Source of the DNA: Clostridiaceae bacterium
GTDB taxonomy: Bacteria; Bacillota; Clostridia; Oscillospirales; Butyricicoccaceae
Reading direction: 5' to 3'
Length of the DNA: 64,000 nucleotides
NCBI GenBank assembly: GCA_034926865.1
Contig: JAYFQP010000006.1
Coordinates: forward strand, 67,297-131,296
Position 1 is the first letter of the stretch. Each line of letters begins with the position of its first letter. Shown piece by piece: positions 46,701-50,501 of the stretch. Below the pieces are notes generated by a model. That model was given only the letters and a program-made list of their open reading frames with translations, did no database searches and was not told the origin of the DNA. Both the position numbers and the translations under genes were made by a program.

Positions 46701-47420
46701 GGCAAGGGAAGGATAGTTCTTATCCGCAACATGTCGCCATCTGCTCTTGAGCAGTCAGCAAATGAGCTTATAGAGGCGCTTAAGTCAAGCCAGATGCTTA
46801 TAATTCCCGGCGGATTTTCAGGCGGAGACGAACCTGATGGAAGTGGCAAGTTTATTCAGGCCTTTTTCCGAAATCCTGCCGTAACAGAACAGATACATGA
46901 GCTTCTCTATAACCGTGACGGCCTTGCCCTTGGCATATGTAACGGCTTCCAGGCGCTCGTAAAGCTTGGGCTTCTTCCGTTCGGAAAAGTGACAAGGCTT
47001 GACAGTACTTGCCCCACAGTCACCTTTAACACCATCGGGCGTCACCAATCAATCTATTCTTATACAAGGGTATCTTCAGTCAAATCTCCCTGGCTTCTTA
47101 AGTGCAATGTGGGCGAAGTTTATAATATACCCTTCTCCCACGGCGAGGGGAGATTTATGGCTGACAGCAAGACTCTTAAAGAACTGGCCCAAAATGGGCA
47201 GATTGCCTTCCAGTACTGTGATGAAAAGGGCAGGCCGAATATGGATATCAATATAAATATCAACGGTTCTGTTGCTGCTATTGAAGGTATAACGAGTCCT
47301 GACGGCAGAGTTCTTGGAAAAATGGGGCATTCTGAGCGCTGCGGAAGCAATGTGGCAAAGAATATTCCCGGTGACAAGTATCAGCCGCTTTTTGAAGGCG
47401 GAGTAGAGTATTTCAGATAG
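43740..47420 (+). CDS. purL: FGAM synthase, single-chain large form (PurS-like + PurL + PurQ glutaminase domains fused)
   Basis: 1226 aa. The C-terminal glutaminase has GICNGFQ and HGEG motifs. Confidence 0.9.
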   Translation: MAKVFRCYTEKRQGFDIEAKGLLSRLRSEEGIDCLEKVRILNRYDCQGIDEQTYQLACEGVFSEPACDEVYHEELPFEGDWTLIVEALPGQFDMRADSCRQCIALMTRGERPLVKNAVMYVFYGNLSDEDKLKISKSLINPVESREASEKKPESLEDSYPQPEAVPYLTDLMAEADLDSYIERYGLAMDSADLDFLREYFKGEGRAPSLTELRMIDTYWSDHCRHTTFLTHLDDIKIDDEKVKAAYDSYLEGRRFVYGDKAKARPVTLMDIATAGAKVLKKQGYLANLDESEEINACSIKIKADVDGTEEPWLLMYKNETHNHPTEIEPFGGAATCLGGAIRDPLSGRAYVYQAMRVTGAGDPNTPLSETLENKLPQRTICRKAAQGYSSYGNQIGLSTGLVSELYHPGYVAKRLETGAVVAAAPESNVVRKVPEPGDVIVLLGGKTGRDGCGGATGSSKSHSSESLESCGAEVQKGNAPEERKIQRLFRNGEATRMIKRCNDFGAGGVSVAIGELADGLDIDLDMVPKKYDGLDGTELAISESQERMAVVLAPEDVEKFIALAAGENLETAIVAHVTELPRLKMRWRGEMICDISREFLNSNGAEKHASIFVPKQDIKNVELPSGDIAKAVIDRLSHESVCLQKGLGTRFDGSIGAASVLMPYGGKNQLTPTQVMAAKLPVLDGETNTASVMAYGFDPYLMEQSPFKGAMLSVVSSASKLVSAGCDPSGVYLSLQEFFEKPNHMPERMGKPFAALLGAYEAQQALKMAAIGGKDSMSGTFNDIDVPPTLISFAITTQSAGDILSPEFKEKGSHVYYFECPEDIEKVSAFLEEMYSFTQSGRVLSAWSVTAGGIIEGICKMAIGNDIGFRLDDGFDERCLFGGSFGSIIAEVDGECEGLMLGRTGGKTIELKTAEISLQTVKNVLMDTLEPIYSTKTSQQPREVPTYSHKVRPQKAMTKVAAPQAVIPVFPGTNCEYDTQKAIERAGGKGRIVLIRNMSPSALEQSANELIEALKSSQMLIIPGGFSGGDEPDGSGKFIQAFFRNPAVTEQIHELLYNRDGLALGICNGFQALVKLGLLPFGKVTRLDSTCPTVTFNTIGRHQSIYSYTRVSSVKSPWLLKCNVGEVYNIPFSHGEGRFMADSKTLKELAQNGQIAFQYCDEKGRPNMDINININGSVAAIEGITSPDGRVLGKMGHSERCGSNVAKNIPGDKYQPLFEGGVEYFR

Positions 47421-47440
47421 TTTTATATGATATTTAAGAA

Positions 47441-47466
47441 GCGGCAGGATTATCCTGCCGTTTCTT
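47441..47466 (+). terminator. intrinsic terminator after purL
   Basis: CGGCAGG / CCTGCCG stem followed by TTTCTT. Confidence 0.65.
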
Positions 47467-47589
47467 ATTAATTTGTCTTTTTGAATATATGATCTATAAG
47501 TAATAACGAATAAATAAAAAAAGAAGGCTTTGGTCTCGTGTAAATACGCTAATTTTCAAAGTAAGATGCAAAAAATGATTTATTCTCCC

Positions 47590-47618
47590 TTGACAAGGGG
47601 GAGGATGAGTAGTATCAT
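47590..47618 (+). promoter_or_regulatory. sigma-A-type promoter of the met leader
   Basis: TTGACA (47590-47595), 17 nt spacer, TATCAT (47613-47618). Confidence 0.65.
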
Positions 47619-47650
47619 AACAACAATACTTTAGAAAGTGAAAGTGATTT

Positions 47651-47764
47651 ATGACAGGTTACGTTTTTGGTATGATGATGATGTGCTCCATGATGTGCGC
47701 TATGTACACCATGTGCATGTGCATGCCTAAAAATAACGGTAACCTGGTAAAATCCCTGTCTTAA
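47651..47764 (+). CDS. Met/Cys-rich leader peptide (37 codons) MTGYVFGMMMMCSMMCAMYTMCMCMPKNNGNLVKSLS
   Basis: ATG at 47651 and TAA at 47762-47764. It has 11 ATG and 4 TGC codons, with 14 of the 18 codons at positions 8-25 being Met or Cys. The SD is weak (AAAGTGA). It lies between a promoter and an intrinsic terminator upstream of metN. It is too short to appear in the ORF track. Confidence 0.6.
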   Translation: MTGYVFGMMMMCSMMCAMYTMCMCMPKNNGNLVKSLS

Positions 47765-47798
47765 GAAGTATTATCGTATAAGCAGGATTTATATTTTG

Positions 47799-47837
47799 CC
47801 GCCGGTTATCGTTTTGATAACCGGCGGTTTTTGTTTT
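47799..47837 (+). terminator. attenuator terminator upstream of metN
   Basis: Perfect 12-bp stem CCGCCGGTTATC (47799-47810) / GATAACCGGCGG (47816-47827), loop GTTTT, then TTTTTGTTTT. Confidence 0.85.
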
Positions 47838-47930
47838 AAGAAAGCGAGGAAGAGGGATGAAAACAAGCGTCACCCTGCGAGAACGAATGTGAAGGCTTGC
47901 TGAAAAATTAATTTTTTAGGAGCTGAACAC

Positions 47931-48962
47931 ATGATCAAACTTAATGATATCGCAAAGACCTTTTACGGCGATGGCGGAAAAGTCGAGGCCGTCAAGGATG
48001 TAAGCCTTGAAATAGACGACGGCGAAATATTTGGGATAATCGGCCTTTCAGGGGCCGGGAAATCAACTCTTGTCAGGTGCATCAACCTCCTTGAGAGGCC
48101 TGACTGCGGAACCGTGACTGTTGACAATGTAGAGCTTACTTCACTTGATGAAAAAAAACTCAGGCACCAGAGGATATCCATGGGCATGATATTTCAGCAT
48201 TTCAACCTCATGCCCTCCAGAACAGTATGGGGAAATATTGCCTATCCACTCAAAAAACAGAAGCTTTCAAAAGAGCAGATTGACACTCGTGTGACTGAGC
48301 TTTTAGAGCTTGTAGATCTTGGCGATAAGAGAGATGCTTATCCCAATCAGCTTTCTGGCGGACAGAAGCAGAGAGTAGCCATCGCAAGGGCTATCGCCAG
48401 TGGCCCCAGAGTGCTTTTGTGTGACGAAGCGACTTCCGCGCTTGACCCGGCAACCACGCTTTCCATCCTGGGGCTTCTTAAAAAAATAAATAAGGCACTT
48501 GGCCTTACGATAGTAATAATTACCCATGAAATGGCTGTCGTGAAAGAGATATGCGACAGGGTAGCTGTCATGGAAGGCGGAAGAGTCATAGAGGAAGGCG
48601 ATGTCCTTAACATTTTCTCTTCTCCGAAGTCGTCTGTTACTAAGTCTTTTATTGAAAGTGCCGCCAATATAGGCAAGATAAGAACGCTTGTGGAAGAGCA
48701 GTCGCCTGCTGTGGCGCTTGAGCCGGGACAGGTGCTTGCAAGGCTTAGATATCACGGGAGAAGCGCTGACCGGGCGATTATTTCATGTATCTCGAGAGAA
48801 TATGATGTCGACTGCAACATCATATTCGGCAATATAGAAATAATAAAGGATTCAGCCATAGGGACGCTTGTATTGATTTTCAGCGGTAAGAAAGAGAATA
48901 TTGAAAAAGCTGTTTCTTATTTGAGCGCCAATGACGTATCGGTGGAGGTGATAGACAGATGA
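47931..48962 (+). CDS. metN: methionine ABC importer ATP-binding protein (with C-terminal NIL domain)
   Basis: GLSGAGKST, LSGGQKQRVAIARAI and LCDEATSALD motifs, plus a roughly 100-aa C-terminal NIL-type domain. AGGAG RBS. Confidence 0.85.
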   Translation: MIKLNDIAKTFYGDGGKVEAVKDVSLEIDDGEIFGIIGLSGAGKSTLVRCINLLERPDCGTVTVDNVELTSLDEKKLRHQRISMGMIFQHFNLMPSRTVWGNIAYPLKKQKLSKEQIDTRVTELLELVDLGDKRDAYPNQLSGGQKQRVAIARAIASGPRVLLCDEATSALDPATTLSILGLLKKINKALGLTIVIITHEMAVVKEICDRVAVMEGGRVIEEGDVLNIFSSPKSSVTKSFIESAANIGKIRTLVEEQSPAVALEPGQVLARLRYHGRSADRAIISCISREYDVDCNIIFGNIEIIKDSAIGTLVLIFSGKKENIEKAVSYLSANDVSVEVIDR

Positions 48963-49636
48963 GTATATTATATGTGCTTTTCCCAAACACCATGGATAAG
49001 ATTCCGCAGTTTCTTGAAAGCATAGTGCAGACGTTTCAGATGGTTGCGCTTTCGGGGGTGATTTCCTTTATTATCGGCATGGTGCTCGGGGTTGTCCTTA
49101 CAGTGACAAAAAATGGGAATATCATGCAGAACGCCGTTGTAAACGGTATTCTCGACAAGGTGATAAATATATTCAGAAGCATACCTTTCGTCATACTGCT
49201 GACGGCTCTTTTGCCGCTCACCAGGGCCCTTGTGGGAACTGCGATCGGCACCAAGGGCGCGATAATACCGCTGATTTTCGGTACGGTGCCATTCTTCTCA
49301 AGGCAGATCGAAGCGGCTTTGGCCGAGCTTGACGGCGGCCTTATCGAAGCTGCACAGAGCATGGGAGACAGCCCTTGGGAGATAACCTTTAAGGTATATC
49401 TCAGAGAGAGCATTCCCTCTATTGTTCGGGGAACTACGATAACAACAATAAGTCTTATCGGGCTTACGGCAATGGCAGGGGCCATTGGCGGAGGAGGCCT
49501 GGGTAATTTTGCTATAATGTGGGGGCATCAGCGTCAGCAGACGGACTGCACCTATGCCGCTATGATAGTAATTCTGGCCCTTGTTTTCGCTGTTCAGGCG
49601 ATAGGAAATCTAATAATAAAAAAGACAACACATTGA
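48959..49636 (+). CDS. metI: methionine ABC importer permease
   Basis: 225 aa with 5 TM segments and an EAA-type loop (IEAAQSMG). The start overlaps the metN stop. Confidence 0.85.
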   Translation: MSILYVLFPNTMDKIPQFLESIVQTFQMVALSGVISFIIGMVLGVVLTVTKNGNIMQNAVVNGILDKVINIFRSIPFVILLTALLPLTRALVGTAIGTKGAIIPLIFGTVPFFSRQIEAALAELDGGLIEAAQSMGDSPWEITFKVYLRESIPSIVRGTTITTISLIGLTAMAGAIGGGGLGNFAIMWGHQRQQTDCTYAAMIVILALVFAVQAIGNLIIKKTTH

Positions 49637-49652
49637 TTTTGGAGGAATAAAA

Positions 49653-50501
49653 ATGAAGAAGCTTATATCACTTATAGCTATTCTGGCGCTTGTGTTCACC
49701 CTTGGAGCATGCGCATCTTCACAGGATACTGATGGAAACCAAGATTCACAGCAAAGCTCTGAACAGAAGGATGGGGCTGTTGTGAAGCTTGGAGTTGTAG
49801 GCGAGGCGAATGAAGCATGGCAGCCTGTTATCGAAAAGCTTGCCAAAGAGGATATAACCCTCGAGATAGTCAGTTTTTCAGATTATACGCTGCCTAATCA
49901 GGCCCTTGATGACGGGGATATTGATCTTAACTCCTTTCAGCATTACGCATTTCTTAATAATGATATCGAAAAGAACGGGTATAAACTGACAGCCATAGGT
50001 GAAACGGTTATTGCTCCCCTTGGCCTTTACAGCCAGAAGATCAAAGATATATCCGAGATCAAAAACGGAGATTCTATTGCCATACCCAGTGATACGACAA
50101 ATGGAGGACGTGCGCTTAAACTTCTTGAGTCTGCAGGATTAATAAAGGTGGACCCCGCAGCCGGATATACCCCGTTTGTTACGGATATTACCGAGAACCC
50201 ACTGAAGCTTGAGTTTGTTGAGGTAGAGGCATCCCTGACGCCCGGCTTGCTTCCCGATGTTGCCGCTGCGGTGATAAACGGAGGCCACGCTGTAGATAAC
50301 GGCCTTGTTCCCTCAGAGGATGCCATTTATCTTGAAAAAGTCGAGGACGGAGCGGATAACCCATATATAAATGTTATTGTCGCACGTACTGAGGATAAGG
50401 ACAATGAGGTCTATAAAAAGGTAGTTGAGTATTATCAGACGGACGAGGTAGCTGCCATAATCAAAGAGCAGTATAAGGGTTCTTATATCACCGTCTGGTA
50501 A
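49653..50501 (+). CDS. metQ: MetQ/NlpA-family methionine-binding lipoprotein
   Basis: Lipobox FTLGAC. NlpA-family pattern (LNSFQH, GDSIAIPSDTTNGGRAL). Confidence 0.85.
   Translation: MKKLISLIAILALVFTLGACASSQDTDGNQDSQQSSEQKDGAVVKLGVVGEANEAWQPVIEKLAKEDITLEIVSFSDYTLPNQALDDGDIDLNSFQHYAFLNNDIEKNGYKLTAIGETVIAPLGLYSQKIKDISEIKNGDSIAIPSDTTNGGRALKLLESAGLIKVDPAAGYTPFVTDITENPLKLEFVEVEASLTPGLLPDVAAAVINGGHAVDNGLVPSEDAIYLEKVEDGADNPYINVIVARTEDKDNEVYKKVVEYYQTDEVAAIIKEQYKGSYITVW

Follow-up and report, generated by a model that had tools for sequence, protein, structure and literature searches.

Methionine genes of Gram-positive bacteria are usually credited to S-box riboswitches, Met T-boxes or protein regulators, and the classical set of leader-peptide attenuators (trp, his, leu, thr, phe, ilv) contains, to our knowledge, no methionine example. 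Here we analyse a 64,000-nucleotide stretch of DNA from a Clostridiaceae bacterium (the window, from whose first letter all positions are counted), in which the methionine importer operon metNIQ is preceded by a short leader open reading frame (ORF1) crowded with Met codons. Based on related loci and on folding models, we propose that this leader is probably a ribosome-mediated, Met-specific leader-peptide transcription attenuator of metNIQ. The sequence features by which such attenuators are recognized are present: an ORF preceded by a Shine-Dalgarno (SD) sequence, Met-codon enrichment, a terminator before metN and mutually exclusive pairings of leader segments.

How does the locus compare with the systems closest to it? 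The classical attenuators of Enterobacteria (trp, his, leu, thr, pheA, ilv) share with it an amino-acid-enriched leader ORF that is, here putatively, translated, the exclusive pairings 1:2, 2:3 and 3:4, a terminator before the first gene and a stop codon placed so that a finishing ribosome blocks 2:3. The locus differs from them in its amino acid, methionine, in serving an importer rather than biosynthesis genes and in its host, a Gram-positive Clostridium-class anaerobe. Its leader is 37 codons long, with 10 sensing codons over 54 nt that form the apex of helix 1:2; helix 2:3 equals or exceeds 1:2 in stability, so that without translation the leader may be ON instead of super-attenuated, and no Rfam leader family is matched. 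Met T-boxes (RF00230) upstream of metNIQ have the same position, operon, presumed signal (tRNA-Met charging) and terminator/antiterminator read-out, but a T-box binds uncharged tRNA directly without translation, whereas the leader described here would use a translated ORF and carries no T-box sequence or structure.

In full-text literature, where subscription journals are mostly uncovered, no Met-codon attenuator was found for Firmicutes, and the only other Met leader was 'metL', predicted before metNIQ in the reannotation of S. lividans TK24 (…ARCMCRRMCAF-stop; PMC8079986). The author of an initial annotation of the window, made from the sequence alone, was not aware of any described Met leader attenuator for metNIQ; in the literature covered this agrees with what was found for Firmicutes and has to be amended for S. 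lividans. According to the available part of that report, metL is likewise a short Met/Cys-codon ORF directly upstream of metNIQ, read as a methionine-dependent leader peptide, but it is leaderless, has 3 Met codons and, in its authors' words, no recognisable Rho-independent terminator; it was described from one genome of a different phylum, without comparative or experimental support, and is likened to our leader by description only (PMC8079986). Mycobacterial polycysteine leaderless small ORFs (sORFs), at which stalled ribosomes unmask a sequestered ribosome-binding site at several loci of a 'ribulon' (10.1101/834739), resemble the action proposed below for a second small ORF of the window, ORF2; their spread over several loci is matched by the Met leader, which stands ahead of metNIQ and also of an M20 gene. 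They are Cys-sensing, leaderless and confined to translation, whereas the main tier here would act by terminating transcription, and the only sensing Met codon of ORF2 is the last before its stop, with CGA ahead of it. Histidine leader peptides predicted in Firmicutes (hisS/hisZ of the B. cereus group; his operons of Peptostreptococcaceae and Erysipelotrichales) provide a precedent for leader-peptide attenuators in Firmicutes, with T-box replacement in some lineages, although amino acid, genes and lineages differ and they are themselves predictions (PMC2965389, PMC9413887). The conserved, Met-specific variant of leader-peptide attenuation proposed here appears new and is essentially undescribed.

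The metNIQ leader and its relatives

The leader and the operon comprise the following elements.

47590-47618, plus strand: sigma-70-type promoter (TTGACA 47590-47595, 17-nt spacer, TATCAT 47613-47618), 11/12 consensus positions
47634-47650, plus strand: 5' untranslated region with a weak purine-rich SD, GAAAGTGAAAG, for ORF1 (direct reading)
47651-47764, plus strand: leader ORF1, 37 codons with 10 internal Met, proposed methionine sensor (ORF scan and relatives)
47672-47725, plus strand: Met-codon run, codons 8-25, proposed ribosome stall zone, opening with four ATG in tandem at 47672-47683 (direct reading)
47798-47837, plus strand: intrinsic terminator, stem 47798-47828 (-23.8 kcal/mol) and T-tract 47829-47837 (terminator scan)
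47931-50501, plus strand: operon of the methionine ABC importer, metN 47931-48962, metI 48959-49636, metQ 49653-50501 (ORFs and NCBIfam)

The initial annotation had recognized the promoter, the leader ORF, a GC-rich terminator with a T-run and, beyond it, metN, and all of these were recovered: the promoter in the same place with 11 of 12 consensus matches, the terminator with a stem of 13-14 bp followed by TTTTTGTTTT, and metN with its ATG at 47931. From the promoter position, transcription is predicted to start near 47625; near-consensus promoters also lie in the equivalent place at homologous loci. The SD sequences of homologues (GAAAGGAAAGG and similar) are stronger than that of the window at unchanged spacing, and in the close relative L119 (MetN 95% identical to the window's) the region differs by TGA>GCG and reads AAAGG. 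The ORF1 product, MTGYVFGMMMMCSMMCAMYTMCMCMPKNNGNLVKSLS, has 11 Met and 4 Cys, with Met or Cys at 14 of the 18 codons 8-25, as first described; 10 of its 36 codons after the start are Met codons, and its stop codon lies at 47762-47764. The pattern exceeds what chance would give: five or more ATG codons in 12 stop-free codons occur only once in the six frames of the 64-kb window, and that is in ORF1. The fold of the 216-nt leader has z = -5.4 against dinucleotide shuffles, none of 200 being equally stable. MetN (TIGR02314, 408 bits), MetI (NF008049) and MetQ (NF008285/TIGR00363) score below the curated NCBIfam cut-offs, yet these are the top matches by a wide margin.

No Rfam family reached its gathering threshold in the window's leader region, and no SAM (S-adenosylmethionine) riboswitch or T-box was among the sub-threshold matches at E <= 10 in 47400-47960. 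Nor did Rfam match any of 20 leader-bearing metN loci: SAM riboswitches (SAM-I/S-box, SAM-II to VI, SAM-SAH, SMK) had no gathering-score match in the window or in these loci, and a covariance-model search with T-box RF00230 found none in either. The identical search detects T-boxes, at 95-129 bits, in 15 other metN loci. The absence of riboswitch and T-box signatures noted at first reading is thus borne out. The sole Rfam family above threshold in the window is a ribosomal protein L10 leader (RF00557, 60802-60941, minus strand, 50.8 bits). The best sub-threshold match in the leader, to the Enterococcus-1 RNA (RF02973) at 47793-47908, scores 19.8 bits where 71.4 are required (E = 0.13) and was not accepted as membership of that family; its parts AAGCGAGGAA and GAACGAAUG overlap the SD and the CGA-AUG end of ORF2, and the similarity may be chance.

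To place the leader among relatives we used 80 metN loci from contigs of one genome per species (numbered here with the prefix L). An SD, an ATG, a Met-rich ORF and a terminator stand directly upstream of the operon in 37 of the 80, so that the conservation proposed at the outset as a check, a short ORF with Met-codon enrichment upstream of metN or metQ, was found. The record titles of these 37 name Oscillospiraceae, Agathobaculum, Oscillibacter, Lawsonibacter, Flintibacter, Dysosmobacter, Pseudoflavonifractor, Vermiculatibacterium, Hominicoprocola and Christensenella. Cultured strains are among the carriers: Agathobaculum butyriciproducens DSM 100391 (L027), Flintibacter faecis BX5 (L043), Vermiculatibacterium agrestimuris DSM 112226 (L040) and Hominicoprocola fusiformis CLA-AA-H269 (L035). 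At the Christensenella locus (L063) metQ precedes metN and the leader stands before metQ, which indicates that the leader tracks the operon and not metN itself. In 33 leader-bearing loci analysed in detail the layout is constant: a near-consensus promoter, an SD, an ATG, 28-53 codons with 5-12 Met and a stop, followed after 4-66 nt by an intrinsic terminator and after another 19-122 nt by the SD of the transporter gene. The terminator has an equivalent in all 33, with compensatory pairs in its stem, and in 29 of them codon 7 or 8 is the earliest Met after the start. Members of the ORF1 peptide family were also found in L001-L004, L106, L119, L121-L125, L091, L096 and L102. At 15 other loci of the 80, mostly labelled Erysipelotrichaceae-type taxa, Catenibacterium, Dubosiella or Lachnospiraceae, the place of the leader is taken by a T-box, and the specifier loop reads GAA-N-AUG-G in 8 of 8 inspected, which makes them Met T-boxes. 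The leader ORF therefore appears to stand in for an established sensor of tRNA-Met charging.

With a profile built from the leader peptides, 154 small ORFs were retrieved from a collection of 5.8 billion proteins, none with a Pfam domain and all annotated as 'hypothetical protein' at most. In every context inspected the order was leader, MetN (ABC_tran and NIL), MetI and MetQ, often with an M20 peptidase next, and one peptide variant is indexed in 152 blocks of an assembly collection. That the family can be retrieved by profile is what one would expect of a functional small protein, such as a Met-rich metal-binding or membrane peptide, merely co-transcribed with metNIQ; MxM motifs do occur in copper-binding proteins. 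We give this explanation next to no credence: beyond the Met codons and a short core there is no sequence conservation, the C-terminal half is in different frames, a terminator always separates the ORF from the operon, and the ORF is associated strictly with methionine uptake genes or the M20 amidohydrolase and replaces the Met T-box. The window's type of leader, with its terminator, also precedes a stand-alone gene for an M20-family amidohydrolase (TIGR01891; L102:2501-3907, L103-L105 and L091:3804 onward), and its presence before both metNIQ and the M20 gene suggests a small, ribosome-sensed methionine regulon.

A metagenome pattern scan with ACCATGTGCATGKSCATGCC gave 21 matches, of which only L083, L084, L091 and L096 are true relatives; the remainder are chance matches inside genes. 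Plus-strand Met-window matches in L019 and L020 were discarded as off-frame within a real gene. In two loci of the L003 type (L122:300-495 and L123:300-495) about 140 nt of extra structured sequence with GC-rich hairpins lies between a promoter-like ATTATCAT and the leader SD; this insert is missing from L003 itself. The gene 5' of the leader at L037:1910-2560, L040:1687 and L051:1640-1711 contains long in-frame MxMxM repeats (KLEMDMNMKMDMT…, GMTMTMDMNIGM…), and thus a Met-rich protein adjoins the methionine importer at these Pseudoflavonifractor/Vermiculatibacterium-type loci. Upstream in the window, a 15-bp hairpin, T-rich on both flanks, lies at 47435-47467, right after the purL stop (47420), and is presumably the purL terminator, insulating the metNIQ promoter; the purL-metNIQ neighbourhood is common to L003.

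Signs that ORF1 is read as codons

Several patterns suggest that ribosomes read ORF1. ATG triplets within the leader ORFs are distributed over the three frames as 249:23:4, and the SD energy of the chosen starts is -8.7 kcal/mol against -2.0 kcal/mol for other ATGs of the same regions (p = 7e-19). Across 16 aligned distant leaders a constant 15 nt separates the first sensing codon from the start ATG, and insertions or deletions in the Met run come in multiples of 3. Past the run a 5-nt indel shifts the frame and the nucleotide block GCGCTCAYTTGCYGCC is kept nonetheless, which marks this block as an RNA pairing segment and not as peptide. At no locus does a stop codon interrupt the ORF1 frame ahead of segment 2. 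Between the window and L119 the 306-nt leader diverges by 4.2%, whereas divergence amounts to 11.1% in metN and to 22.6% in the sequence upstream of the promoter; the terminator shows no difference in 40 positions. All six differences within ORFs are at third codon positions (four in ORF1, including one in the stop, and two in ORF2); one of the ORF1 changes, GGT to GGC, converts a G·U to a G-C pair in helix 1:2.

These patterns bear on the possibility of an RNA-only switch. The leader would then be a new riboswitch or would bind a protein or a tRNA, the AUG repeats and CGAAUG would be RNA motifs, and the ORF would be incidental. Such a switch would account for the strong conserved secondary structure, for CGAAUG being invariant as nucleotides, for the block after the Met run that is kept as nucleotides while the frames differ, and for a leader conservation that exceeds that of metN synonymous sites. 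It would leave the frame bias, the variable number of units, the indels in threes, the frame uninterrupted up to segment 2 and the exclusively third-position differences from L119 without explanation, as well as the well-spaced, good SD before a conserved ATG in nearly all loci (the window's own SD being weak). Moreover, no Rfam family is matched and no conserved multi-helix, aptamer-like core runs across the family. We consider an RNA-only switch very unlikely.

Which amino acid would a translated leader sense? The initial annotation called ORF1 Met/Cys-rich; the Met enrichment is conserved in relatives and the Cys enrichment is not, so that only Met is conserved in the leader. Relatives have Arg at the Cys positions (MRAMRTM in L002, L091, L096 and L102), distant leaders have 0-2 Cys, and the Cys codons look like structural partners of CAUG palindromes rather than a conserved Cys sensor, because the Cys/Arg swaps keep base pairing. 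In the apex hairpin described below, UGC beside AUG makes the GCAUGC/CAUG palindromes that build the structure, and a U-A to C-G swap corresponds to a change from Cys/Tyr (UGC…UAC) to Arg/Arg (CGC…CGU). The four Cys codons interleaved with Met in the window suggest a combined attenuator for the sulfur amino acids that would sense codons of either kind; the thr and ilv leaders are known examples with mixed regulatory codons, and the predicted metL of S. lividans is, in the part of the report available, M/C-rich too. With Cys replaceable by Arg and its codons explained by the palindromes, this reading is improbable, although among the alternatives weighed here we would place it first.

The peptide itself might matter as well. 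Thirteen distant leaders share an unchanged M-D-M-A-M, whose Ala codon may be GCT, GCG or GCA, and PMP usually follows (for example in L016, L029, L037 and L023); this could point to selection that acts on the peptide, or on particular residues in the P site (Asp, Ala, Pro) ahead of each sensing Met codon. One alternative is nascent-peptide arrest of the TnaC or SpeFL kind, in which free methionine or SAM would be sensed instead of tRNA charging: MCMCMP, MDMAMPMP and the TL(R/K)ERM-stop of ORF2 would act in the ribosome tunnel and stall elongation or termination depending on whether the ligand is there. The synonymous variation beneath a conserved peptide (MDMAM; L-(R/K)-E in ORF2) is in line with this idea, and the Met-UGA end of ORF2 resembles termination-stalling peptides. 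The polarity is awkward, however, as a Met importer is wanted at low Met and ligand-induced arrest usually activates at high ligand. Furthermore, the motif is not universal (MPMP is missing in L013, L028, L046 and the L019 type, and the L004-type ORF2 has HKGRRM), ORF1 beyond the Met run is in different frames across lineages, and the many Met codons (5-12) are the hallmark of a charging sensor. We consider arrest very unlikely, a little less probable than dual Met and Cys sensing and a little more so than the RNA-only switch, and prefer the reading of a leader whose Met codons report on tRNA charging.

Alternative structures and a proposed ribosome-dependent switch

The leader RNA of the window contains the following pairing elements.

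47655-47674, plus strand: segment 1, 5' strand of the anti-antiterminator helix, partner 47722-47746 (minimum free energy (MFE) folds, pair counts)
47681-47720, plus strand: apex hairpin within the Met run, CAUG palindromes and UGC/GCA (fold; 97.8% of cells paired)
47733-47752, plus strand: segment 2, in the last 10 codons of ORF1, pairing with segment 1 or segment 3 (folds)
47794-47813, plus strand: segment 3, terminator 5' arm and flanks, forming the antiterminator with segment 2, duplex -19.7 kcal/mol (folds)

The three mutually exclusive pairings originally proposed (1:2, 2:3 and 3:4) are present in the folds of the window, and the segments from which they were deduced lie where they had been placed: GGTTACGT at 47657-47664, ACGGTAACC at 47736-47744 and GGTTATCGT at 47804-47812. 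By analogy with the trp leader, the apex hairpin may possibly act as a pause hairpin for RNA polymerase. Nine members of the window's clade (the window itself, WIN, with L001, L106, L002, L096, L003, L004, L091 and L102) were folded one by one because a MAFFT alignment of whole leaders misplaced the terminators. The full leader folds into a long 1:2 hairpin and the terminator in eight of the nine, L096 being the exception. When the nascent RNA, lacking the 3' arm of the terminator, is folded with a ribosome mask on the early Met codons, segment 2 pairs with the terminator 5' arm in all nine, the antiterminator outcome foreseen for a ribosome-covered early leader.

The helices are maintained while their sequences change, and compensatory changes of the kind sought in segments 1-4 were found within the clade for 1:2, 2:3 and 3:4. 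Helix 2:3 is built from diverse sequences (AACGGUAACC/GGUUAUCGUU, AAGGAUGACC/GGUCAUCCUU, AGCGAUGACCG/CGGUCGUCGCU, CGCGGCGGCC/GGCUGCCGCG and CGGCAGCCG/CGGCUGCUG), and across the 33 loci cognate pairs of segment 2 and terminator arm are stabler than non-cognate ones, with none of 10,000 permutations reaching the observed sum. For helix 1:2, 78.8% of cells are paired in 13 sequences, against 23-52% when the partners are slid; nine pairs show compensatory changes, and the 21 doubly-changed cells were equalled by none of 500 shuffles. The position of segment 2 relative to the ORF is likewise kept in the clade, where its 5' end always lies 24-37 nt upstream of the stop and its 3' end falls anywhere from 20 nt upstream to 3 nt downstream of the first stop base.

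A codon-by-codon mask was used to follow the ribosome along ORF1 of the window. With the A site at any of codons 1-25, which include all Met codons, the terminator 5' arm has 11 of its 13 bases paired with 47738-47748. From about codon 30 to the stop the mask covers this partner, and with the ribosome at the stop just 2 of the 13 arm bases are paired upstream, so that the arm is free to form the terminator. Duplex 2:3 has -19.7 kcal/mol and the outer 1:2 duplex -16.6 kcal/mol, and the nascent RNA without any ribosome also folds as 2:3. Thermodynamically, we infer, the decisive event would be the arrival of the ribosome at the end of ORF1, and the release of segment 2 from segment 1 would count for less. 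In a classical attenuator, lack of leader translation results in super-attenuation. As 2:3 is at least as stable as 1:2, the folds suggest that an untranslated leader may here give read-through instead. The stalled-ribosome logic of the initial annotation accordingly needs qualification: a stall on the Met codons gives the antiterminator in the folds, as had been argued, but 2:3 forms whenever segment 2 is free, even without a ribosome.

In the mechanism that we infer, from the start of the transcript through translation of both ORFs, stalling at Met codons and polymerase timing to every response to methionine, transcription would begin at the consensus promoter and ORF1 would be translated behind the advancing RNA polymerase. 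When Met-tRNA(Met) is plentiful, the ribosome would pass the 10 internal Met codons, cross segment 2 and sit at or near the stop at 47762-47764 as segments 3 and 4 emerge. Segment 2 would then be covered or cut off from segment 3, the terminator at 47798-47828 would form and transcription would stop in the T-tract. When Met-tRNA(Met) is scarce, the ribosome would stall among the Met codons, initially on the four AUG codons at 47672-47683, where it would cover segment 1 too. Segment 2, left free, would pair with segment 3, no terminator would form and the polymerase would enter metNIQ.

A candidate second tier and its implications

Between the terminator and metN lies an ORF of 11 codons, ORF2, that is absent from the initial annotation and may add a translational step.

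47857-47892, plus strand: mini-ORF2, MKTSVTLRERM-stop, with purine tract GAGGAAGAGGG ahead and the end CGA-AUG-UGA at 47884-47892, proposed translational Met sensor (relatives)
47887-47932, plus strand: hairpin sequestering the metN SD (AGGAG 47918-47922) and start codon (MFE)

The 5' arm of this hairpin consists of the AUG-UG of ORF2 and the anti-SD GGCUU-CUGAAAAA (47894-47907), and AUG-UG pairs with CACAU at the metN start. ORF2 is found in WIN, L119, L001, L106, L002/L083, L096, L120, L004 and L124/L125; it ends in CGA-AUG-UGA in all carriers, 36-40 nt separating its stop from the metN ATG. One sub-clade retains TL(R/K)ERM as the C-terminus although the codons vary synonymously (CTG/CTT/CTC/TTG for Leu, CGA/CGG/CGC/AAG for Arg/Lys, GAA/GAG for Glu), and the L004-type ORF2 ends in …HKGRRM. 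With a ribosome mask on CGA-AUG of the window, the SD becomes more likely to be unpaired (probability 0.44, up from 0.21), and so does the metN start codon (0.82, up from 0.36); only 4% of shuffles match the native sequence in sequestering the SD. Mask-dependent opening of SD and start also occurs in L002, L096 and L004, and in L120 and L004 the anti-SD complements the SD context of the respective locus (CUUCUUAAAA/UUUUAAGGAG and UUCUCACCUUU/AAAGGAGAGAA). On read-through RNA, a ribosome lingering on the last Met codon of ORF2 would open the hairpin and allow translation of metN. From these folds ORF2 and the SD hairpin may be a second, translational attenuator of the ermC or mycobacterial poly-Cys kind, a proposal we advance tentatively, leaning slightly against it.

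The CGA-AUG hexamer links the end of ORF2 (47884-47889) with the leaders of L009-L059, where it occupies codons 7-8 (for example L016:2778-2783). In distant leaders CGA almost always stands directly before the first sensing Met codon, which is codon 7 or 8. Among Arg codons right before ATG, CGA accounts for 20 of 22, against 10 of 86 elsewhere in the leaders, counts that are inflated by sequence relatedness, and it makes up 6-9% of Arg codons in flanking genes. In L034 and L042 the leader ORF contains another CGAATGTGT close to its end, able to pair with ACACATTTG just 5' of the terminator. CGA is presumably read here by an inosine-34 tRNA-Arg through I:A wobble, which in other organisms impairs decoding of the next codon; a tRNA scan found no tRNA gene in the window. 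We speculate that CGA in the P site slows decoding of Met in the A site and so amplifies sensitivity to Met-tRNA(Met). The full scheme, a two-tier and purely ribosome-based Met sensor that joins a sensitised CGA-AUG dicodon, a default-ON fold and a single-codon translational gate on metN formed by ORF2, is unlikely to hold in all its parts.

Several observations weigh against the attenuator and its second tier. The complete RNA always has the terminator as its MFE structure, and the model thus rests on kinetics. The ATG-frame and SD-strength tests are partly circular, the frame and the start having been picked by those very properties, and the structure tested for helix 1:2 came from the window's own sequence, one of those aligned, which flatters the result somewhat. 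RNAduplex z-scores against shuffles, informative for the window's clade, do not distinguish the antiterminator (2:3), or pairing 1:2, in GC-rich distant loci. RNAalifold on the 16 distant leaders recovers the terminator alone, the middle of the alignment being too divergent, and for this reason no family-wide consensus is claimed for helices 1:2 and 2:3. Loci of the L003 type have no ORF2, metN following 22 nt after the terminator there, and sequestration of the SD by the downstream arm of ORF2 is unsupported in L001 and L106. Finally, Met is needed for initiation too, and severe starvation could halt leader translation altogether. The default-ON fold, if true, would remove this usual objection that Met starvation also blocks initiation.

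What would such a leader mean for methionine uptake? A Met-codon attenuator would be spread over many abundant gut anaerobes, and its location exactly at the Met T-box position of relatives would represent a clean natural swap of one tRNA-charging sensor for another. At least 154 unnamed 'hypothetical' small ORFs in metagenome annotations would be explained. The CGA-AUG dicodon and the default-ON fold, if true, are design features not described for any attenuator, and the second tier and the pairing of a rare codon with a sensing codon would, if confirmed, be new design features too. The locus makes testable how an attenuator for the initiator amino acid can work and whether a rare codon before a sensing codon tunes sensitivity, and it may offer a compact Met-responsive part for synthetic biology in Clostridia. 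The model also predicts how methionine uptake would be regulated in commensals that are hard to study.

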